60,863 nucleotides of DNA from Clostridia bacterium. GTDB lineage: Bacteria > Bacillota > Clostridia > TANB77 > CAG-508. This document shows, piece by piece, positions 14,396 to 58,733 of this stretch. The translations under genes and the position numbers were made by a program. The notes under the pieces were generated by a model that was not told the origin of the DNA, made no database searches, and worked only from the letters and a program-made list of their open reading frames with translations. The DNA lies in assembly GCA_022790575.1 (NCBI GenBank), contig JAAVXM010000049.1, positions 1 through 60,863 on the forward strand, written 5' to 3'. Numbering within the stretch: the stretch's first letter is position 1; each line of letters starts with the position of its first letter.

Positions 14396-16732
14396 TTATA
14401 TTATTTCTAATTTAGCAAATTTAGCCATAAGCCTTTTATGACCTGCTTTGTCAAAATTAATGTCAACTTTTAAATCATTACCTTCTTCTTCAACATAATT
14501 AATCGTTCCTTCACCAAACTTCTTGTGATATACTCTAACACCTGCTTGGTATGAAGATAAATCAATATCTTGACTTCCAGTAACTGCCTTATTTAAGTTA
14601 TTTAAGAAACTTTCTGCACTTCTAAAGTTAAATCCTTTCTTTGTATTAGCACTATTAGAGGTTGAAGCTGTTGATGCCGAAGCTGCATATTCTGGTTCTT
14701 GAATTTTATATGTCTTAATATTTCCATTATTTTTGCTACCATAGCTCCAAGAATAATTACTATTGCCAAATGTATTTGCTATATTTGAATGTTTTTCTTC
14801 TTTTATGTCTTCATATCCATCTAATAATTCTTTTGGTATTTCCTGCAAAAATCTTGATGGTGGATTATATGTTGTTGTTCCAAATGTTGTCCTCTGTTTA
14901 CTATTTGTTAAATATAAGTTTTCCTTTGCTCTTGTAACTCCTACATAACATAAACGTCTTTCTTCTTCTAATTCCTTTTGTTCTCCAATAGACTTATACC
15001 CTGGAAATATTCCTTCTTCCATTCCAACTAAGAATACTACTGAAAATTCTAGTCCTTTAGCACTGTGTAATGTCATTAATGTTACTGATTCTTCAGTGTC
15101 TTCTACATTATCTAAATCACTAGATAATGTTATTCCCTCTAAGAATTCTCTTAAGCCATTTTCTGCTGATTCTTCTTCAAATTCTACTGCTACTGTTAAG
15201 AATTCTTCTAGGTTTGCTATTCTATTTTCTGCTTCTACTGTTTTTTCATTTTCTAATGCTTTTGTATACCCTGTGTCTTTTAATATTTTTTTAACCAATT
15301 TTGATATACTTAAATTGTCTTTTTCTGCAATTATTGTTTCCATACAGTTTATAAATTCTCTTGAGTTTAGATATACTCTGTTTAGTCCATATTGGTCTGC
15401 ATTTTTAATCACTTCATACATTGAAACTCTATTTTCTGTTGCAATTTTTTCTACATTATCTAGACTTGTTTTTCCAATTCCTCTTTTGGGCTCATTTATT
15501 ACTCTATTTAGGCTTAAATTATCTGATGTATTTTGAACTAATCTTAAATATGAAATGATATCTTTTATTTCTTTTCTTTCATAGAATTTTAGTCCTCCTA
15601 CAATTTTGTATGGTATTCCTTCTCTTCTGAATATTTCTTCTATTGCTCTTGATTGAGTATTCATTCTATATAAAATTGTAAAGTCTGAATATTTGTAATA
15701 TTCTTCTCTTCTCAAATGTTCAATTTCTTCTGCTATATATTTACCTTCATCATATTCATTGTCTGCTGAATGAACTTTTGGTAGATTCCCTTCATCATTT
15801 TCTGTCCATAATTTTTTGTCATATTTTACTTCATTATTTTTTATTACTGCATTTGCAACTCTTAATATGTTTCCTGTACATCTGTAGTTTTGCTCTAATT
15901 TTATTATTTTTGTTCCAGGAAAGTCTTTTTCAAAATTTAGTATATTTGATATATCAGCTCCTCTGAAACTGTATATCCCTTGGTCATTGTCTCCAACTGC
16001 TGTTATATTGCCATGTTTTGAAGCAAGCATTGTTATTAATGTAAATTGTGATTTATTTGTATCTTGATATTCATCTACTAGTATGTATTGAAATTTGTTT
16101 GTATAATATTCTAATACATCTGGATTTTCCATTAGTATTTTTATTGTGTAATTTATGATGTCATCAAAATCTATTGCATTATTTTCTCTTAATCTATTTT
16201 GGTACATTGTATATACTTGTGCTATTTTTTCTTTCCTATAATCTCCATGTACTTTTAATGTATATGTATCTGGTTCTAACATGTCGTTTTTAGCATTACT
16301 TATCTCTGATGCAACTGCTCTATCATTAAATAATTTGTCATCTATTTGTAATTCTTTTAAACATTGCTTTATTAATGTTTTTTGGTCTGCTGTGTCAAAT
16401 ATTATAAATGATGAGTCAAACCCTATTCTGTCTATAAATCTCCTCAAAATTCTTACACATATTGAGTGAAATGTTCCTACCCACATGTCTTTGCTTACAT
16501 CTCCAACTAGGTTTGCTATTCTTTCTTTCATCTCATTTGCTGCTTTATTAGTAAATGTTATTGCTAATATGTTCCATGGTAAAACTTTTTTCTCATCTAC
16601 TAAATAAGCAATTTTATGTGTTAATACTTTTGTTTTTCCACTTCCTGCTCCCGCTATTACTAAACATGGTCCTTCTGCATTTATTACTGCTTCATATTGC
16701 TTGTCATTTAATCCTTCTAGTATATTTTTCAT
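14396..16732 (-). CDS. pcrA: ATP-dependent DNA helicase PcrA (UvrD family)
   Basis: Walker A AGAGSGKTKVLTHK, DEYQDTN, and the remaining superfamily 1 helicase motifs. Confidence 0.93.
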   Translation of the reverse strand: MKNILEGLNDKQYEAVINAEGPCLVIAGAGSGKTKVLTHKIAYLVDEKKVLPWNILAITFTNKAANEMKERIANLVGDVSKDMWVGTFHSICVRILRRFIDRIGFDSSFIIFDTADQKTLIKQCLKELQIDDKLFNDRAVASEISNAKNDMLEPDTYTLKVHGDYRKEKIAQVYTMYQNRLRENNAIDFDDIINYTIKILMENPDVLEYYTNKFQYILVDEYQDTNKSQFTLITMLASKHGNITAVGDNDQGIYSFRGADISNILNFEKDFPGTKIIKLEQNYRCTGNILRVANAVIKNNEVKYDKKLWTENDEGNLPKVHSADNEYDEGKYIAEEIEHLRREEYYKYSDFTILYRMNTQSRAIEEIFRREGIPYKIVGGLKFYERKEIKDIISYLRLVQNTSDNLSLNRVINEPKRGIGKTSLDNVEKIATENRVSMYEVIKNADQYGLNRVYLNSREFINCMETIIAEKDNLSISKLVKKILKDTGYTKALENEKTVEAENRIANLEEFLTVAVEFEEESAENGLREFLEGITLSSDLDNVEDTEESVTLMTLHSAKGLEFSVVFLVGMEEGIFPGYKSIGEQKELEEERRLCYVGVTRAKENLYLTNSKQRTTFGTTTYNPPSRFLQEIPKELLDGYEDIKEEKHSNIANTFGNSNYSWSYGSKNNGNIKTYKIQEPEYAASASTASTSNSANTKKGFNFRSAESFLNNLNKAVTGSQDIDLSSYQAGVRVYHKKFGEGTINYVEEEGNDLKVDINFDKAGHKRLMAKFAKLEII

Positions 16733-16734
16733 TA

Positions 16735-17076
16735 TTATTTTATTTCTCCTTTTATTGTTACTTCATATCGTTTATCACTTTTTTTAAATATTATAGTATA
16801 TGGTCCTTCTCCAGTTAGTGTATAATTGTCTTGTCCAATATTCTTGTCTAATTCATTTTGTAAATTTTCTTTTGTTACTTCTCCCCACTTGTTTAGTGTC
16901 ATTGCTTCTGTTACAGCTATATTTAGCTGTTCTTTTTCGTCTCTATTCTCTGTTAACTCTTTTGCTTGCTCAGTATTATTTAATAAGTCATCTTTCCCTG
17001 ATAATGTTCTTAAACTTACTCCTGCTAATATTAATATTACTACTATTGTTACCACTAAGGCTATTAGTGTTATTCC
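16735..17076 (-). other. leaderless pilin-like module fused to the prfA 3' end
   Basis: [32 protein letters not shown]... for 114 codons. It has the same architecture as the N-terminal ~115 aa of the gene at 36114-37613. The stop abuts the pcrA ATG. Confidence 0.7.
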
Positions 17077-18132
17077 TGATGTATCATTTAGTCTTTCTGC
17101 TCTATCTGCTGCTGCTAAATTGTCAAGCATTTCATCTATGTCTCCATTTAAAAAGTTCTCCATCTGGAATATGCTCATTCCTATCCTGTGGTCTGTTATA
17201 CGTCCTTGTGGATAATTATATGTTCTTATTTTTTCACTTCTGTCTCCACTTCCTACTTGCGTTTTTCTTGCACTTGCTATTTCTGAGTCTTGCTTTTCCT
17301 TTTCTATATTATATAATCTTGAACGTAGCATTTTCATCGCATATTCTCTGTTTTGCAGTTGAGAGCGCTCTGTTTGACATTCTACTGTTATTCCTGTTGG
17401 CTCATGTATAAGTCTTACTGCTGATGATGTCTTGTTTACATGTTGCCCTCCTGCTCCTGATGCTCTGAATACTTCCATTTTTATGTCTGCTGGATTTATG
17501 TCTATTTCTACATCTTCAACTACTGGTAATACTGCTACTGTTGCTGTTGATGTATGTATTCTTCCACTACTTTCTGTGTCTGGTACTCTTTGTACTCTAT
17601 GTACTCCACTTTCAAATTTTAATCTGCTATATGCTCCTTTTCCTGTAACCATAAAAGATATTTCTTTGTATCCTCCTAATTCTGTCTCATTTTCATTTAA
17701 TATCTCTATTTTCCAGTGCTTCCTTTCTGCATACATTGAATACATTCTAAATAATGTCCCTGCAAATAATGCAGCTTCTTCTCCTCCTGCTCCTCCACGG
17801 ATTTCACATATTACGTTTTTATCGTCATTTGGGTCTTTTGGTATTAATAGTATTTTTAGTTCTTCTTCTATGTGTGGAATTTTTTCTTTTGCTTCATAAT
17901 AGTCTATTTCTGCTAATTCCTTCATCTCTGGGTCTTGCATCAACTCTTTTGCGTCTTCCATTCTTTGCTTCTCTTTTTTGTATTCTCTATATTTTTGTAC
18001 TACTTCTTCTATTGAATTATGCTCTTTTATTAATTTTTGCCATTCTGCTTGATTTGCAATTACTTCTGGGTCACTTATCATTTTTGTTAGTTCCTCATAT
18101 CTAGCTTCTACAGTTTCTAATTTATCAAACAT
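16735..18132 (-). CDS. prfA: peptide chain release factor 1 with an in-frame C-terminal pilin-like extension
   Basis: AAAGGAGA RBS before the ATG at 18132 ([15 protein letters not shown]). GGQ motif ([13 protein letters not shown]). The RF1 part is ~352 aa, and the ORF then continues without a stop into [10 protein letters not shown]... Confidence 0.85.
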
Positions 18133-18218
18133 AAATATTCTCCTTTTTTCCAATCTTTAACATTTAGTATTATACTATATTTTTTCCTCTTTTTCAATAA
18201 AAATAATATATAAATGTC

Positions 18219-20180
18219 TTATAATTCTATATAGTTGAATTCTATTCCTTCTTTTTCTATTATTTCACATTCTCTTTTTGTACATGTAAATATTATTATT
18301 TGTCTTTCTGCAAATTCTGTTACTAAATATTTAAGAATGTTTCTTAATCTTTCATCATCATAATATGCAAATGTTTCATCTAATATAATTGGAACTTTTT
18401 CATTTGATATTGTGTCTATCATTGCTAGCCTTAATGATAAATATAATTGCTCTATTGTTCCTATACTTAACCTTTCTGCTGATATGTAATTGCCATTGTC
18501 TAATTCTACTGTTAATCCCTGCTCATCACTAAAATATATATTATTGTATTTTCCATTTGTTATTTTTGAAATATGTTCACATAGTTTTTTTGTAAATATT
18601 GGACTTATCTGATTTTTCATCTTTTTATATGCTTTTTCTAATAGTTTTTTTGTGAGTTCTATACTTAAGTTGTCTCTTTGCAACTTTTTGTATTGTTGTT
18701 CTAATAAAATTCTTTTTTCTTCTAATTCTGGTTGTCTCTCTATTTGAGCTTCTACTGTTTCCCTTTTTACTTCTAGTCTGCTTAATTCAATTTGCTCATT
18801 ACTAATTTTTTCTTCTATAAATTTTTTCTCACTATCTGTTCTTCCTTCAATAAATAGTTCTTTTATTTGCTGTGATTCAATCTCAGTTGAATAATTATTT
18901 ATTATTTGTTGCTTTTCCATATTATAAGTGTAGTTATTGTCTGCTTTCATTTTATCTATTTCTTTTTTTATTTCTTGTGAGTTTCTTTCTATTACTTTTT
19001 TCTCACTATCTAATTCATGTTTTTCTGAATTTATTCTTTCTAATAACTTTTTCTCACTTTTTTCTATGTCCTTTATTTTCCTTTTTATTCTTCTCTTTGA
19101 TATTATTGCAATTATCAAATATATTGGTAATGTTACTAGAATTATATATCTTAATATCTCATCTTGCATAACATATGGGAATATTGACACCCATAAAGCA
19201 TTTATTATTATTAAAATTATTAGCCATATTTTTATTCTATTGTTTAGTTTTATATTTTCATATTTTGTTTCTGTTATTTTGGCTCCTTTTCTAGTTTCCT
19301 TATATTTTACATCTACTGTCTCTATCTCATTATTTATCTTGTCTACTTTTACATCATTTTCTAATATGATGTTTTCTTTTATTTTTATTTTCTCTTTTTC
19401 TAATTCGTCTTTTTCTTTTATTTTTTTTATCTCTCTTAGTAATTCTTTTTTTATTATATCTTTTTTTAACTCATTTTTTATTGTTTCTATTTCTTTCTCT
19501 ATTTCATATTTGTATTTTTCCGCTTCTTTTAATTGGGCTGTTTCTTCTTGATTTTCTCTCATTTTTTCTTGTATTATATTTATTGGCTTTTCTCTACTTC
19601 TTTCTGTTCCTATTTCTTCTAATTGCTTTTTGTTTATTTTTTCTATTGCTTTTTTATATGATATATTGTCCTGCCCTGTTCCTAATATATTTGATATTTT
19701 TTGTATTAATATATTTTGTGTTTCTTTTTCTATCTTCGTTTCTTGTTGCATTGCAATTGATGTTGCCAAAAATATCTCTTCTTTTATTTTTGTTTGTTCA
19801 TAAAAGAATTCACTTCCTTTGTTTTTGTCTATATTGAATTCTTTTGTTATATTATCTCCTTTTTCATTAAATATTGTTGGATTCTTTTTATTGAATTCTC
19901 TATATATTTCATATTTTTCACTATTATCTAATTCATAATATAATTTCCCTGAAAATTGTTCTGCATCCCACGGCTTATATCTGTCAAAGTCTGATATTTC
20001 TTTTCCTCTTTTGTTTTTTGATGCTCCATAAAGTGTATTAATTATGAATTTTAATATTGTTGATTTTCCACTTTCATTTTTCCCATATATTATATTTAAA
20101 TTGTTTTTTAATTCTATTTCTTTTTCTTTTAGTTTTCCATATGAATTTATTTTTATTTTGTTTATCTTCAAATGGTTCAC
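18219..20180 (-). CDS. AAA/SMC-like ATPase, YhaN (SbcE)-like, with central TM segments
   Basis: Walker A GKNESGKST, long coiled coils, two central hydrophobic helices, and a C-terminal signature/Walker B region (PIILDETFAYYDD). Confidence 0.75.
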   Translation of the reverse strand: MNHLKINKIKINSYGKLKEKEIELKNNLNIIYGKNESGKSTILKFIINTLYGASKNKRGKEISDFDRYKPWDAEQFSGKLYYELDNSEKYEIYREFNKKNPTIFNEKGDNITKEFNIDKNKGSEFFYEQTKIKEEIFLATSIAMQQETKIEKETQNILIQKISNILGTGQDNISYKKAIEKINKKQLEEIGTERSREKPINIIQEKMRENQEETAQLKEAEKYKYEIEKEIETIKNELKKDIIKKELLREIKKIKEKDELEKEKIKIKENIILENDVKVDKINNEIETVDVKYKETRKGAKITETKYENIKLNNRIKIWLIILIIINALWVSIFPYVMQDEILRYIILVTLPIYLIIAIISKRRIKRKIKDIEKSEKKLLERINSEKHELDSEKKVIERNSQEIKKEIDKMKADNNYTYNMEKQQIINNYSTEIESQQIKELFIEGRTDSEKKFIEEKISNEQIELSRLEVKRETVEAQIERQPELEEKRILLEQQYKKLQRDNLSIELTKKLLEKAYKKMKNQISPIFTKKLCEHISKITNGKYNNIYFSDEQGLTVELDNGNYISAERLSIGTIEQLYLSLRLAMIDTISNEKVPIILDETFAYYDDERLRNILKYLVTEFAERQIIIFTCTKRECEIIEKEGIEFNYIEL

Positions 20181-21255: not shown

Positions 21256-21406
21256 TGTTTCGCCTTCTGGGCTCCCCCCCTTTTTCTTTTTCGTGCCCTT
21301 ACATTTTATCTCATTTTTTTCTTTTTTTCAAGTGTTTTGCGAAAAGTTTTTCGCTTTTTATTGTTTTGAAACTTAAAAAAATACTGGTATTTTATATTAT
21401 ATTGCG

Positions 21407-21781
21407 CTATACTATTATCAAACTTTTTAGGAAAGGAACTGAATACATGGCAGATGTGAAACAACGAACGATAGATAGTGAAGGTGATATTAAAATAGGA
21501 ACCTGTGGTAATTCTTCAATAGTCTTAAGTGAATCTGTTTTCCTAATTATCTGTGCATCGCTTAGTATTAGTTCAAGCTTTTCTCTTGCTGCTGCTTCTC
21601 TACTATTTCTTTTTGCTTGCATTGCCTGTTTTATTATTCCATTTTCCCCTGTTAATAATGCAATACATACTCCTGCTAATATTAAAAGAACTATAAGTGT
21701 GACAACTAACGCTATCAGCGTTATTCCTCTTTTCTCTGCTACTTGTTCCTTCTTTTCTTTTACATACTTAACTTCATACAT
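21407..21781 (-). pseudogene. pilin-like gene fragment: long leader, N-terminal helix and ~70 aa, then an unrelated tail
   Basis: ...[24 protein letters not shown]...EAAAREKLELILSDAQI is homologous to 57051-58733. After ...EELPQ the reading frame becomes an odd hydrophobic tail. Confidence 0.55.
21668..21706. repeat. 39-nt block identical to 58675-58713 (encodes VVTLIVLLILAGV)
   Basis: TACTCCTGCTAATATTAAAAGAACTATAAGTGTGACAAC occurs at both sites. The window's first 11 nt match its 3' part. Confidence 0.8.
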
Positions 21782-22119
21782 TTGTATGTCTCATCCCTTT
21801 CTTTTTTCTTATGTTTCTCTTTTTTTTACTTTTTATTCATTTTTGCTCTTTATTTTCTTTCTCTTTATGTATAATCAATTTGTATGCTTCTTGCATTATA
21901 TTCTATTTAGCATTTCTTGTTAATAATTCTTTTCTATTATACAGGATAAAGACATGAAAAGAATTCTGCAAGCCTGAATACAATATAAAAATCAACTAAA
22001 AGTACTGTTCAATATATAAAAATTACGATATAATATCTTTGACATGGAGCAAAAAAACAAATGATAATTAAAGAAATAGAAATATATGTTTTTGTTAGTA
22101 TTGTTGCTAGTTGCCTGCC

Positions 22120-22156
22120 GAAAAAAAAAAGAATATTAGAAAATCTCTAATATTCT
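22120..22156 (-). terminator. intrinsic terminator of the coupling-protein operon
   Basis: AGAATATTAGA-loop-TCTAATATTCT followed on the minus strand by T10. Confidence 0.7.
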
Positions 22157-22174: not shown

Positions 22175-24229
22175 TTAATCATCCATTGAGCCAAATAATT
22201 CATCAAATTTAGCCTCTAATTCTTTTTGTAAATCATATGAATCTTCTTCCTCTTCTTGTACCTGTGCTGGTTCTGGCTGTTTTGGTTTTTCACTGTTTAT
22301 TTGTATATCATCAAATAAGTCATCTATTCCTTTGTCCTCTTTTGGGACTTCTTTTTTAATCTCTTTAGGTTCTTCTTTTATTTTTGGTTCTACTTTTTTG
22401 TCTTCTTTCTTTTCTTCCTTTTTAGGTTCATCAAATAAGTCATCTAATGATTCAACTTTTAAATCTTGCATTTCTTTTTCTGTCTTATCTTCTGTCCATG
22501 GATTATATGGATTGAACTTTCTCCAATTACCTCTTTCTATTTCTCCTACATTATTATGACTAATCTCTGACCTTTTTAATTCATTAACCATCTTTTTATT
22601 TTTAAAGTAGTAGAATTTATTTGCTTTTACTGGCTTTATACCTTTTTCAAATATAATACATAAGTCATTATCCATTCTTCTCAACTCATCTGGTGTCATT
22701 AATGCTCTTGCCATAACTTGGTCTGATATGCTTTGTCCTGTTCTAAAATATTGTCTATCTTTATTTACTGAAATACTATTCCTGTCTATTGTCTTTTCTC
22801 CCAATGCTTTTGAGAAATATTCCACTGTTTTATATGAGTTACTTCCTAAAAATACATGTGTATCACAGTTTCCTATAATTGTTTCATATGATTTTTCATA
22901 TACTGCTTCTAATTGGTCTAGGTTTTGTAATATTACACTAAATGAAATTTTTCTACTTCTTGATGTTGATATTTTCTTATCAAAGTCTGGTACTTTTCCT
23001 ATGTTTGCAAACTCATCAAGTATAAAATATGTTGGCACTTTTAGTGCTCCTCCATTTTCATCTGCATAATTATATAATTGTTGTATCATTTGCGCAAAAA
23101 ATATTGTTAGTAAAAAGTCATATGCTGTATGTGTATCTGATGATATTACATATACTGCTGTTTTCTTGTTTCCTATTGATTCAAAATCTATTGTGTCTGT
23201 TGATGTTAATTCTGCTATTTCTTTTGAATCAAATTTTCCTAGCTTTGATTGTAGTGTACTTAATATTGAACTATATGTTTTTTCTGGCGCTATTTCTATT
23301 GATTTATAGTTCATTCTTGCTGGATGGTCATATGGAAGTTTACTGATTAATTCTGTTAACAAGTTATTTCCTCCACTAGAATTTGCTGCTCTAACTAATT
23401 CTGCACAACTTGCTAAGTTTTGTTCCTCTTCTGGTCTTGTTGCCATTAAATAATATATTAATGATTTTAATAGCATTTCTGCTGAGTCATCCCAGAATGG
23501 GTCTGACCCTCCTCCATCTGTTTTTTGACCTTTTACTATTGTGTTTGCAATTACATCTACATCTATTTCTGATGATATATGCATTAATGGATTATATCCA
23601 TCACTATTTTGTGGCTTTACTAAATTTAAGATTTTTATTTCATATCCATTTTCTTTTAAATATCCTGCTGTCTTGTCATATAATTCTCCTTTTGGGTCTG
23701 TGAATACATATGACCCTAATTGCTGAAATGCATTTGGTATTGAGTATGATGCTGATTTACCAGACCCTGACCCTCCGACTACTAATACATTTACATTTCC
23801 TCTCTTATCTGTTGGTAAATAATTATCTTCTGCTAGTATTATTCCTTTTTTATTGCTTAAAACGTGATATTGCTCTCCATTTTTACTCCAGTCACTTGAA
23901 CCATGTTCAAAGTCTGTATATTCATGCTTTGGCGCTGACCTGAATATCCCTATCATGAAAAATATAGAATATACTATTGTAAATCCTCCTAATGATTTAA
24001 AGTATGAACCAATTAATCCTTGTTTTATTATACTTAATATCCCGTTAAATGGATTTGTTAGTGCTTGCATGAATACTTGCATTCCATTTTGTGCACTTCC
24101 TTTTACCATTTCATTATATCCAAGTGTTATAGGCGCCATTAATACTATGGCTGCAAATAGCCATAGTATTACAAATATTATGAAATATTTCTTGTTCCTT
24201 CTTATAACTCCCTCTAGCTTGTAATTCAT
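22175..24229 (-). CDS. type IV secretion coupling protein, VirD4/TraG family
   Basis: Two N-terminal TM helices, Walker A VVGGSGSGKSASYSIPN, Walker B region YFILDEFANIG, and a Lys/Glu-rich tail. GAAGGTGA RBS before the ATG at 24229. Confidence 0.85.
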   Translation of the reverse strand: MNYKLEGVIRRNKKYFIIFVILWLFAAIVLMAPITLGYNEMVKGSAQNGMQVFMQALTNPFNGILSIIKQGLIGSYFKSLGGFTIVYSIFFMIGIFRSAPKHEYTDFEHGSSDWSKNGEQYHVLSNKKGIILAEDNYLPTDKRGNVNVLVVGGSGSGKSASYSIPNAFQQLGSYVFTDPKGELYDKTAGYLKENGYEIKILNLVKPQNSDGYNPLMHISSEIDVDVIANTIVKGQKTDGGGSDPFWDDSAEMLLKSLIYYLMATRPEEEQNLASCAELVRAANSSGGNNLLTELISKLPYDHPARMNYKSIEIAPEKTYSSILSTLQSKLGKFDSKEIAELTSTDTIDFESIGNKKTAVYVISSDTHTAYDFLLTIFFAQMIQQLYNYADENGGALKVPTYFILDEFANIGKVPDFDKKISTSRSRKISFSVILQNLDQLEAVYEKSYETIIGNCDTHVFLGSNSYKTVEYFSKALGEKTIDRNSISVNKDRQYFRTGQSISDQVMARALMTPDELRRMDNDLCIIFEKGIKPVKANKFYYFKNKKMVNELKRSEISHNNVGEIERGNWRKFNPYNPWTEDKTEKEMQDLKVESLDDLFDEPKKEEKKEDKKVEPKIKEEPKEIKKEVPKEDKGIDDLFDDIQINSEKPKQPEPAQVQEEEEDSYDLQKELEAKFDELFGSMDD

Positions 24230-24252
24230 TTGTATAATCACCTTCTCTTCTG

Positions 24253-33658: not shown

Positions 33659-33801
33659 AAAAAATGGTTTGAGCCCCAATCTCTCTATGGAAAACAATTC
33701 CCACATAAAAGTATCTACTTATTGCTGCTTCCTTCCGGACCTGACAAGGTTCATAGGCTTTTATTGAGCTTGCTTTCCATACAAAGGTTGGTTCTCATAC
33801 C
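33659..33801 (-). ncRNA. ffs: signal recognition particle RNA (short form, no Alu domain)
   Basis: The minus strand contains the domain IV core CUUGUCAGGUCCGGAAGGAAGCAGC. The 5' and 3' ends pair into a long closing helix. It ends in a U run, has its own promoter, and occupies the classic position upstream of dnaX. Confidence 0.8.
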
Positions 33802-36113: not shown

Positions 36114-37613
36114 TCACCAGTTCCATACATCTCCTTTTTGTCCATTTAAACCACAATACATATTTCCATAGCCTTCATAATCTACAGTATCTGGTGATGT
36201 AAGATATACTTCACTTCCATTATTTACTGTATATACATACCCTGGAGCCTTTGTTGCTCTATATTTCGCTCCCAATACATTATTTCCTACACTTGTATGG
36301 GGTACACTATTATATGAGTCTATAAACATCTCTACACTTGGACTTCCTATTACATAATTTGCTTTACTTCCATCATAATTATTTGACCATGGACGACCTA
36401 TATCACTTCCATCTTCTGGGTCACACAGCCATGCTGCTGCCTTTTCATTTGTGTCCCATCCACTTTCATTGTTCCTTCTGTTTTTTGCCCAATCAGGATT
36501 CATTTCTTTTACTTTGGTTTTACTTGTTACATAACTTGTATTTAATGATGTTGTTTTGTTTGAGGTATAATCAGCCTTTAAATATATTGTGTTTATTCCA
36601 TCTCCATATTTATTTTCTTTATCTACAAAAAATATTCTGTATGTTGCATCTCCTGTTGTATAATTTTTTACTATTTTTCCATAATATATTTCTGGATTTT
36701 TTGCTATATCTTCTGCTGATGGATTTTCTTTTATATTTACTTTTACTGTTACTTGACATGTTCCTGCAAATGTTTCCCCTTCACTATTCGTCCCTGTTAT
36801 TGTTACATTTACTGGGCTCGTTGTTGTTTCTACTCCTTTTACATTTCCTTTTGTGTTCACTGTTACCTTACTTGTATCTCCACTACTATAACTATATGTC
36901 ATATCTTCTACATTCTGTGCTGGTGTTGTCTTTACTACTATTTCCTTTGTTTCTCCTACTGATACTTCTATTGGGTCTGCACTTATTCCTGTTACTTCTG
37001 ATACTATTATTACTTCACATTCATCACTATAATTTCCTATTTTTACTGTTATTTTTGCTGTATCTCCTACATTTCCTTTTGCTGTTACATTTCCTTGATT
37101 ATCTACTGTTGCTACTGTTGTATTACTTGAACTCCATTCAATATCACCACTTGTTCCTTGTTTCTTTGTTGCTATTAATCTTTCACTTTTTCCTTTTAAT
37201 AACTTAAGTTGACTTTTATTTAATGTTATTCCTCCTTTTTCATTTTCTTTTTTCTCTATCACTTCTCCTTCTTCCGTTATTTCATATTTAACTCCTCCTT
37301 CTTCCACAATCCATGGTAATCCTCCTTCTGGTCCATTTTTTTCTATATTCGTTATTCCTGCTCCTTTTAATTCTGTATCTAATCTACTTAAATCTATTGT
37401 TCCTTCTTCATTTATTTTCGATGCTATTACTGCTAACTTTATCTTCTCTTCTATTTCTGCTTTTTTTGAATTATTTTTTGCATTTTGTGCTTGGCTTATT
37501 ATTCCATTCTCTCCTGTTAGCATTGCTATACTTGTTGCTGCTAATATCAATAATACTATAATTGTAATAACTAATGCTATTAGTGTAATTCCTCTTTCTT
37601 TTCTTATTTTCAT
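36114..37613 (-). CDS. pilin-like surface protein with Big_2 (bacterial Ig-like) domains
   Basis: AGAGGAGG RBS and ATG at 37613. [25 protein letters not shown] leader and helix. A Big_2-like segment (LNKSQLKLLKGKSERLIATKK..DIEWSSSNTTVATVDNQGNVTAKG). Ends at TGA 36116-36114. Confidence 0.8.
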   Translation of the reverse strand: MKIRKERGITLIALVITIIVLLILAATSIAMLTGENGIISQAQNAKNNSKKAEIEEKIKLAVIASKINEEGTIDLSRLDTELKGAGITNIEKNGPEGGLPWIVEEGGVKYEITEEGEVIEKKENEKGGITLNKSQLKLLKGKSERLIATKKQGTSGDIEWSSSNTTVATVDNQGNVTAKGNVGDTAKITVKIGNYSDECEVIIVSEVTGISADPIEVSVGETKEIVVKTTPAQNVEDMTYSYSSGDTSKVTVNTKGNVKGVETTTSPVNVTITGTNSEGETFAGTCQVTVKVNIKENPSAEDIAKNPEIYYGKIVKNYTTGDATYRIFFVDKENKYGDGINTIYLKADYTSNKTTSLNTSYVTSKTKVKEMNPDWAKNRRNNESGWDTNEKAAAWLCDPEDGSDIGRPWSNNYDGSKANYVIGSPSVEMFIDSYNSVPHTSVGNNVLGAKYRATKAPGYVYTVNNGSEVYLTSPDTVDYEGYGNMYCGLNGQKGDVWNW

Positions 37614-57050: not shown

Positions 57051-58733
57051 TTATTGTATCCCTTTGAATTCATACCAGTATCCACCTTTTTCTCCTGAGT
57101 TTGGATATGCATTTTGACTTATATCTGCAACAGTTCCTTCTAAACTCGTTCCTTTTTCTGGTACATTATTAACCTCTTCTAATGTTATATTACGTATCCA
57201 ATATGGTCCCCCATATATAGCCGCTAGGTCAATTTTATTATCTTTTATTTTCATATTACTTATAGGTGTAAAATGTAGAGATATATTTGAAATATCATTT
57301 TTCATTAATGATACTCTTGTTCCGCACAATTTCATTTAAACTATATTGACTTACCATTTTTTTGTCTTTTGATATTCTATATCCTGGTTTATCATTATCA
57401 GGATACATTACAGTTGTACTATTTAATTCAAATGTTCCTGTTGCTTGATTTATTGTATAACCATCTGCAAATTGTTCATAAAAATCATATTCTCCATCAT
57501 GAGGTCCTGTTACTTCTCCTAAAACTTCTCTATATTGTTTGCTCATTTTTACATCCCATTTTTCCCATGTATATAACTTTGTCCTTGCTACTTTTGTTAC
57601 TCTACTTTCATTTTTTAAATTATCTGTTACTACAACAAAACATTCTTTTTCACTCATCCCTTCTCCAGTCCAAGTATAACTTGCTGTTTCTTCTGTTGTA
57701 GTTTGTGTATCTACTAATTTATTATCCACGTAAAATTCATATTGGGCTATACCACTATGTTCATCAATTGCAGTTGCTGTTAATGTAAAAGATTTTTCTG
57801 AATTTGGCGTTGATGATACTTCTATTTTCGGTGCTGTATTGTCAAAGTAAAATGCCTCACTTCCACATATATTTTTCTTTCCTGTTTCTGTTTCTATTAA
57901 TATCCACAAATAATATTTTCCTGTTATCCCTTTACCTGTTATAGTACTTTTATTTATACAGCTTTCTATGAATTCCTCTTCTTTTGGCTCTTGTACATTG
58001 GTTGTCCATTTATATTTTATATTTTTTATCTTTTCATTTGTTTCTATTGCAACTATTTTTACTGAATGTTCATTTTGGTATTGTCTATTTCCATTTGGTG
58101 AAAATTCTACTTCTGCTGTTATTCCTTCTACTGTAGTTTTTATACTTTCTGATAGTTCCGCATATACTTTTACTGTGTATATTCCATTTCGTTTTACTGT
58201 ATATGTTTCTTCTATTTCTTCTTTTATATTATTATATTCATATTCTTTGATTTTTTCTCCTGTTCTCCAAATTTCTATTCTATTTATTCCATTTGTTTTT
58301 TCTTGTGCTGTTATTGTGAATGTTGCTGACCTATTATCTGAGGCTATATCAGGTGTACTTACTGATACTTTTGGGAATATTAGTTTTTCTTCTTTTAATA
58401 AATATTTTCCTACTTTTGGTATACTTCTATCTAATTCATATGCATATCCATCTACTATTGCTACATCTCCTCGTACCTTTGCACCATTTATTTGATTTGT
58501 AATTATACTATCTAAAAATTCCATTTCATTATATTCTATATTTGTTTTCTTTTCTATTTGTGCATTTAATAATACAACTTCTAGTTTCTCTCTTGCCTCT
58601 GCCTCTTTATTGTTTTCTTTTGCTTGTTTCGCTTGACTTATTATTCCATTTTCTCCTACTAACATTGCTATACTTACTCCTGCTAATATTAAAAGAACTA
58701 TAAGTGTGACAACACTAATGTTATAAATTCCAT
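57051..58733 (-). pseudogene. pilin-like Ig-fold surface protein gene with N-terminal and C-terminal frame lesions
   Basis: ATG at 58733 gives MEFITLV, followed by a 1-nt insertion and a 9-nt deletion relative to the paralogues. The main frame 58665-57295 starts inside the helix. A second shift at an A5 run (about 57296-57300) joins it to ORF 57335-57051. Confidence 0.65.
58675..58713. repeat. 39-nt block identical to 21668-21706
   Basis: The same 39-mer read at both loci. Confidence 0.8.

Follow-up and report, generated by a model that had tools for sequence, protein, structure and literature searches.

Release factor 1 fused in frame to a pilin-like module in a Clostridia bacterium

The fused prfA gene

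Contig JAAVXM010000049.1 from the Clostridia bacterium assembly GCA_022790575.1 (60,863 nucleotides, analyzed at its full length and called the window below) includes a prfA gene, encoding peptide chain release factor 1 (RF1), which continues in frame into a module with a pilin-like N-terminus. The open reading frame (ORF) at 16735..18153 on the minus strand is uninterrupted along its whole length. Its start is the ATG at 18132, with AAGGAG upstream, and the ORF from 18132 to 16735 encodes a protein of 465 residues. This protein is composed of residues 1-348 of RF1, the four residues N-D-T-S, and Gly353 followed by ITLIALVV, with 113 residues from Gly353 to the end. The RF1 part is complete except for its last five residues, KGEEE, which are missing together with the stop codon; the 117 residues beyond it include a transmembrane-type helix. 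The product thus departs from the soluble size of RF1 proteins (~350-360 residues), having 465 residues and a hydrophobic helix at residues 354-374. The TAA of the fusion ORF is at 16737-16735, and the ATG of pcrA, at 16732-16730, starts 2 nucleotides further on.

The original prediction, made from the sequence alone, had described an RF1 with a GGQ motif continuing in frame into an appended module, with the TAA beside the pcrA ATG. Every feature it stated is found in the sequence, the TAA and the ATG being separated by a 2-nucleotide gap. A recoding or frameshift reading was rejected: both other frames stop within 2 codons of the junction, as expected at 28% GC, and there is no slippery motif. 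The features of the locus are listed in Table 1.

Table 1. Positions of the parts of the prfA fusion and of related features in the window.
Feature	Position	Strand	Basis or remark
RF1-homologous coding part, residues 1-348 plus 2 nucleotides of codon 349	17087..18132	-	TIGR00019, Pfam PCRF and RF-1, nucleotide homology
Junction codons Asn-Asp-Thr-Ser; left breakpoint after AGACTAAA	17077..17088	-	Comparison with relatives
Gly353 (GGA), the -1 Gly of the family before ITLIAL; putative processing site	17074..17076	-	Family alignment
Hydrophobic helix, 21 residues (354-374)	17011..17073	-	Columns invariant across family; AlphaFold; sub-threshold N_methyl
Soluble part of the module: long helix, then small alpha/beta unit	16738..17010	-	Similarity to P0121 and to the 36114-37613 protein; AlphaFold2 (AF2)
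Lineage-specific 333-bp (111-codon) segment in place of the RF1 tail KGEEE, stop and spacer	16754..17086	-	Without homology to relatives
pcrA ribosome-binding region, read as the last codons of the fusion (KGEIK and stop); GGAG at 16749-16746	16730..16753	-	Homologous to the region upstream of pcrA in L001
GGAGAC, 9 nucleotides, ATG; proposed internal start	17128..17145	-	Read from the sequence
Promoter-like site upstream of prfA, TTGAAA-17-TATAAT	18169..18197	-	11 of 12 consensus positions; consensus match only
pcrA (UvrD/PcrA helicase), directly downstream of the fusion ORF	14396..16732	-	Synteny, ~80% nucleotide identity
Intact paralogue with the leader MKIRKERG-ITLIAL and a first module followed by Big_2 domains	36114..37613	-	
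Truncated 124-residue paralogue fragment, atypically long leader, degenerate C-terminus	21407..21781	-	In ~760-bp strain-specific segment
Paralogue (456-residue Big_7 surface protein) without Met, leader and GITLIAL residues	57295..58713 (region to 58740)	-	
Paralogue leader cut by the contig end	1..52	-	

Reproduction of the junction in other assemblies and strains

The exact 465-residue protein is on record in NCBI, JGI, and Logan. Besides the window, it is encoded by two contigs, L007 (Logan SRR29855655, 4.9 kb) and L008 (JGI 3300051405, 1.5 kb). The sequence of L008 is identical to the window. L007 shows 28 differences from the window in 21345-18620, covering the sbcCD-like genes (1% divergence), and none in 18619-16622; it also does not have a segment of ~760 bp that is present in the window. 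With these differences and the missing segment, L007 represents a different strain, and the presence of the identical fusion in this divergent strain indicates that the allele persisted or spread beyond one clone. The junction is reproduced in three assemblies and at least two read sets and strains, which answers the concern, raised with the original prediction, that a chimeric assembly or a missed stop was responsible. The fusion is not an assembly artefact.

The 2-kb block free of differences (16622-18619) covers the fusion and the start of pcrA, and the adjacent 2.7 kb carries all 28 differences. This sharp haplotype boundary at the fusion block suggests a recent recombination or sweep of the segment. 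The ~760-bp segment (21362-22129) lies between VirD4/TraG-like and sbcD-like genes, where L007 has ~70 bp with a hairpin instead.

The exact 26-nucleotide junction had no match in JGI metagenome contigs (the scanned set evidently did not include the short contig L008), nor did the generic pattern of an RF1 tail, 9-39 nucleotides, and GITLIA. Further contigs of the species were looked up through exact pcrA, with none on record, and through the CotF-like neighbour, with only short contigs recovered, none reaching prfA.

Unfused relatives and the breakpoints

The RF1 part is 92-93% identical to the 353-residue RF1 proteins of neighbouring species, and the best 120 RF1 homologues are all 350-354 residues long and end in RL[KQ]GEEE. 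The original prediction had proposed to locate the stop codon by alignment with prfA of close relatives. Among species-representative genomes, the 80 whose RF1 is closest (78-93% identity) all have an RF1 of 350-354 residues, and in each of these loci the stop codon directly follows RL[KQ]GE(E/D)(E/D); the fusion is specific to its lineage. These genomes come from uncultured gut Clostridia, including the relatives Clostridium sp. CAG:440, 26_21, 27_14, and 28_12, and the one closed chromosome among them is 1.55 Mb.

No C-terminal extension like that of the fusion was seen in ~200 close RF1 relatives inspected, and the 333-bp segment is not downstream of prfA in any of the 80 loci. Six loci with matches past residue 348 (L016, L042, L061, L065, L069, and L070) were rejected as further fusions; they have normal RF1 stops, and the extensions are joins made by tblastn. 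A query of 90 residues across the junction was compared with 1.84 billion cluster representatives, and no other RF1 fusion is among the best 150 of the 11,424 matches. Essentially all of these matches carry the motif at the N-terminus. The top match, P0236, with a leader at residue 388, was considered as a second RF1 fusion and rejected, as it consists of two family members joined without any RF1. The fusion is apparently unique.

Nucleotide homology to the relatives, which runs from the sbcCD-like genes through prfA, ends exactly at 17087 in five of six comparisons. It restarts at ~16753 in the pcrA ribosome-binding region and continues through pcrA. At the left junction, relatives have AGA CTA AAA GGA GAA GAA GAA TAA, and the window has AGA CTA AAT GAT ACA TCA GGA. 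At the right junction, the last codons of the fusion, AAA GGA GAA ATA AAA TAA, fall on the pcrA ribosome-binding region, whose sequence in L001 is AAAAAGGAGAAAAAAATG. The residues TSG just before the hydrophobic helix are also the end of the native leaders in the homologues P0122 and P0135, which would fit a breakpoint within a family gene's leader.

In relatives, prfA and pcrA are separated by 120-230 nucleotides or by a ZIP transporter gene. In strains of a species with a 92%-identical RF1, L003 (1999-6496) and L004, a tyrosine-integrase element is inserted in the ZIP gene directly after prfA, and this element carries a 622-residue protein of the GITLIAL/Metallophos family. The ZIP gene is intact in the sister strains L001 and L002. 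The module shows no trace of the L003 element or the ZIP transporter gene, and no ZIP sequence is left in the window. A recent duplication of a paralogue in the window was rejected as the source of the module, since the nucleotide identity is at most 72-80% and is restricted to the leader. The closest relative of the module anywhere is P0121, with 52% amino acid and 71% nucleotide identity. Rfam gave no match in or near the fusion region.

The appended module and its family

P0121, to which the soluble part of the module is 52% identical, is a free-standing protein of 144 residues. The resemblance noted in the original prediction to the first module of the 36114-37613 protein holds, with 36% identity over 113 residues (E = 2e-16). 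The homologues of the module are free-standing proteins, each with its own Met and a basic leader (median length 11 residues), followed by Gly. As had been described, the appended part corresponds to what follows the leader in the family, and RF1 stands in place of the Met-Lys/Arg leader of the paralogues. After the hydrophobic helix, the family often shows (L/M)TGxNGIL and then a small domain, and many members extend into large surface domains (Big_2, Big_7, DUF6273, and Metallophos).

The family counts 11,424 cluster representatives, and five copies are in the 61-kb window, all of them on the minus strand. Among 242 members, position -1 is Gly in 237 and position +1 is Ile in 239. Ala occupies position +5 in 233 and Glu in none; the fusion has Ala. 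In 233, the leader has a charge of +1 or more. The leader motif has four occurrences in the window, where chance would give 0.21. No papers were found in a literature search for the family motif.

In the AF2 model of the module (mean predicted local distance difference test score, pLDDT, 78), helices are predicted at 2-26 (pLDDT 81-91) and 29-62, followed by a small alpha/beta unit. A pilin-type hydrophobic N-terminal helix of ~20 residues, running on as a long alpha-1, is therefore predicted for the module. A basic leader ending in Gly is present in the family, and only its Gly is kept in the fusion. Searched with the family profile, PDB sequences gave the type IV pilin PilE1 (8pfb_G) as the best match (E = 0.0018), followed by MshA (E = 0.051). 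Pfam N_methyl (PF07963) scored 12.7-15.9 bits for the fusion and the paralogues, below the cut-off of 21.2, and TIGR02532 gave no match. Foldseek comparison of the module model with PDB gave no match at E ≤ 0.001, and the best matches were not pilins. No A24 prepilin peptidase or pilus-assembly gene was found among ~47 ORFs of the window scanned with Pfam, nor within 10 kb of four family members (loci of P0121, P0126, and P0216 among them). The term pilin-like used in the original prediction is thus weakly supported: the PilE1 profile match speaks for it, while the sub-threshold N_methyl score, Ala at +5, and the absence of pilins from the Foldseek matches speak against it. The term is fair for the N-terminus, and membership in the type IV pilins is not established.

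State of the RF1 part

The fusion scores 528.2 bits with the prfA equivalog TIGR00019 (cut-off 423.25) and 523 with NF001859 (cut-off 400). The Pfam domains PCRF (PF03462, 7.9e-79) and RF-1 (PF00472, 9.2e-45) are recognized, and both the GGQ catalytic motif and the P-x-T recognition motif (PDT, in RVPDTES) are present. At columns with at least 95% conservation, two conservative deviations (I107V and V249T) are observed, the junction aside, within the range of the relatives. The RF1 part shows no decay at the sequence level.

TAG ends 14 of the 61 ORFs in the window, and TGA ends 5, at 28% GC; the ORFs ended by TAG include mreB, mreC, minC, and a Mur ligase gene. Because TAG stops are common, RF1 must stay usable, and the RF1 part is inferred to keep working. 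A literature search on RF1 fusions found nothing relevant. E. coli RF1 with three C-terminal chitin-binding domains is mentioned as supporting growth in PMC7387428, which cites Loscha et al. 2012, so that RF1 can cope with a bulky addition at its C-terminus. A membrane helix joined almost without a linker is more demanding than a bulky tag, which makes proteolytic release attractive.

Origin of the fusion and alternative explanations

The fusion is reproducible, its breakpoints are located, and its RF1 part is intact. These observations are probably best explained by a real and heritable fusion of RF1 to a fragment of a pilin-like gene, a tolerated accident which is neither an artefact nor a dedicated system. 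The formation of the joins, the function of RF1, and the fate of the protein may be inferred as follows. In an ancestor of a rare lineage of gut Clostridia, 333 bp of a pilin-like surface-protein gene, reaching from about codon 3 of the donor leader to the end of the first module, would have landed between codon 348 of prfA and the ribosome-binding site of pcrA. The RF1 tail KGEEE, the stop codon, the terminator, and the spacer would have been lost at this rearrangement. The joins appear to be at short purine-rich sequences common to the partners, CTAAA at the left and AAAGGAGAAA at the right, which points to microhomology (illegitimate) recombination rather than site-specific insertion. Translation from the prfA start would give a single chain of 465 residues, in which the module is a passenger without its own promoter, start, or basic leader. 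The hydrophobic helix would most likely enter the membrane with RF1 on the cytoplasmic side, and RF1 would then work tethered or be freed by proteolysis. A cut after Gly353 by the processing enzyme of the family would yield RF1 of the native length of 353 residues.

Several points weigh against a tolerated accident. The fusion is known from two strains only, with identical fusion genes, and the event could be very recent. A second prfA may lie in the genome outside the 61-kb window. The microhomologies are short and AT/purine-rich and could be coincidental. The in-frame exactness of 111 codons could hint at selection for the product, with a prior of one in three for an in-frame join. The membrane helix, 4-5 residues past the last RF1 helix, might bar RF1 from the ribosomal A site, a situation for which a soluble tag is not a true precedent.

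Alternatively, the ORF might encode a natural polyprotein. Once its helix is in the membrane, a cut after Gly353 would be made by a prepilin-type (class III signal) peptidase, with RF1 as a 353-residue leader; the products would be cytoplasmic RF1 of native length and a mature pilin-like surface protein. The near-invariant G/I junction of the family is typical of processing sites, the best PDB matches of the family profile are type IV pilins, a cut at Gly353 restores the length of unfused RF1, and RF1 must stay usable with TAG stops common. Prepilin peptidases act at the cytoplasmic face of the membrane, and the Gly at -1 is their main requirement. Against it stand the lack of an A24 peptidase or pilus-assembly gene at the loci scanned, the N_methyl score below the gathering threshold, Ala instead of Glu at +5, and acidic or neutral rather than basic residues ahead of Gly353. 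Prepilins are not known to have leaders longer than a few tens of residues. A natural polyprotein is judged unlikely. The cleavage step itself, one of the two readings in the original prediction, is plausible from the near-invariant G/I site and the native length of the released RF1, but the site has no basic leader, and the step is regarded as doubtful. Somewhat more doubtful is the idea that G/ITLIAL is a portable processing cassette, from which a class-III-signal peptidase would remove a 353-residue leader that is the only RF1 of the cell. If this were true, one ORF would supply an essential cytoplasmic factor and a surface protein, the RF1 supply would depend on membrane processing, and a prepilin-type peptidase would, for the first time in a natural system, be seen to free a functional cytoplasmic protein.

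It is very improbable that the fused prfA is crippled or dispensable and decays as a pseudogene while a second prfA elsewhere handles UAG. The membrane helix right after RF1 could impair function, and the analysis covered the 61-kb window of this genome. The RF1 part shows no excess of change beyond the two conservative deviations, however, its GGQ is intact and its equivalog score is 528 bits, the fusion occupies the conserved syntenic position of prfA, and the allele is common to two strains. Duplicate prfA genes are rare in small genomes.

Slightly less credible again is the production of two proteins from one ORF, in which internal initiation at the ATG at 17130 would give a pilin-like precursor with a 19-residue leader ending in Gly. 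The in-frame ATG (17130-17128) and the GGAGAC preceding it by 9 nucleotides, both reported in the original prediction, are found in the sequence, and the spacing is workable. As a designed feature, this internal start is not upheld: the Met at 17130 is an RF1 residue conserved throughout the 86 prfA sequences tabulated, and about half of those without the fusion also have GGAGAY ahead of it, so that neither arose with the fusion. The leader from the internal start would be acidic (net charge -2), against at least +1 in nearly all family leaders, and the full-length fusion product remains even if internal initiation occurs.

An assembly chimera or a sequencing error at the repeated leader sequence can practically be dismissed. 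Leader DNA does occur repeatedly in the genome, and one of its copies is cut by the end of the contig, but the left join is 9-10 nucleotides upstream of the repeated DNA and the last codons and stop of RF1 are gone, so that repeat collapse cannot explain the junction, which has no homopolymer and is found in three assemblies.

Other family copies and rearrangements

The copy at 57295-58713 has an in-frame stop just upstream, and its first ATG falls past the hydrophobic helix; this copy is silent, or else a pseudogene truncated at the 5' end. Assemblies probably break at the repeated leader DNA. In another species, L070 shows the arrangement of prfA followed by a family gene: a family ORF of more than 1,400 residues with the leader MKKRNKGVTLIAL begins ~200 nucleotides past the prfA stop, at ~5230, and runs off the locus. 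In L090 (10001-11159), the 109-residue ORF P0126 overlaps the next DUF6273 ORF, as if a larger gene had been frameshifted. Fused and split genes seem frequent in the family, and the prfA fusion appears to be a further outcome of the turnover of a rearrangement-prone family.

pcrA and the chromosomal context

The pcrA of relatives carries UvrD-helicase and PcrA_UvrD_tudor domains, and the pcrA of the window is syntenic and ~80% identical to it in nucleotides. The TTGAAA-17-TATAAT site is the best promoter-like site in the region. Between prfA and pcrA on the minus strand, no terminator-like site, no promoter region of pcrA itself, and no spacer were found. It is probable that pcrA shares a transcript with the fusion ORF and, with the arrangement TAA-TA-ATG, that the translation of the two is coupled.

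A gene for a VirD4/TraG-type coupling protein (22175-24241, minus strand; T4SS-DNA_transf, 4.7e-86) lies beside the sbcCD-like genes, with synteny conserved in several species, and no other conjugation genes were seen near it. The window represents the core chromosome of a spore-former, including mreBCD, a PBP2-type transpeptidase gene, minC, dnaX, recR, spoIIR, and ypeB. It also holds the signal recognition particle (SRP) RNA gene (33683-33781), two tRNA genes, a gene for a Germane-domain (GerM-like) protein, and CotF-like genes.

Significance

The fusion is a curiosity with one testable twist, the processing, and not a new system. If the single prfA of the organism bears a membrane helix, the gene offers a natural experiment on the C-terminal tolerance of an essential translation factor, and also a test of prepilin-type processing behind a very long leader. 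The fusion draws notice to a very large and unnamed family of pilin-like N-terminal modules with Ala at +5 in small-genome gut Clostridia, whose copies have time and again been truncated, fused, and inserted close to housekeeping genes. In annotations, the gene should be named prfA with a C-terminal fusion, and not a pilin or a novel factor.

Comparison with known systems

Residues 1-348 are the same in kind as those of ordinary RF1 (PrfA), at the same syntenic position and with GGQ and PDT. The fusion differs from ordinary RF1 in the loss of the acidic tail and stop, and in the gain of 117 residues. As far as it is described in PMC7387428, the engineered E. coli RF1 is similar in that a large C-terminal addition, encoded at the chromosomal prfA locus, is compatible with growth. 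There, the tag is soluble and man-made, whereas the addition in the window is natural and begins, almost without a linker, with a membrane helix.

With type IV pilins and class III signal peptides, the family shares the short basic leader ending in Gly, and with the pilins also the hydrophobic helix of ~21 residues, which runs on into a long helix, and the small alpha/beta unit after it. It differs from type IV pilins in having Ile at +1 and Ala at +5 instead of Phe/Met and Glu, and in its many dispersed copies, with no pilus machinery near the loci scanned and no pilin among the Foldseek matches. In the fusion, moreover, the basic leader is replaced by RF1. Modular pilins with large C-terminal domains are known from work on Streptococcus sanguinis, and many members of the family also carry large extra domains. 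The head-to-tail fusions within the family, such as P0236 (706 residues), likewise place a family leader inside a longer ORF after the loss of an upstream stop, but there the upstream partner is another family member and not an essential cytoplasmic protein.

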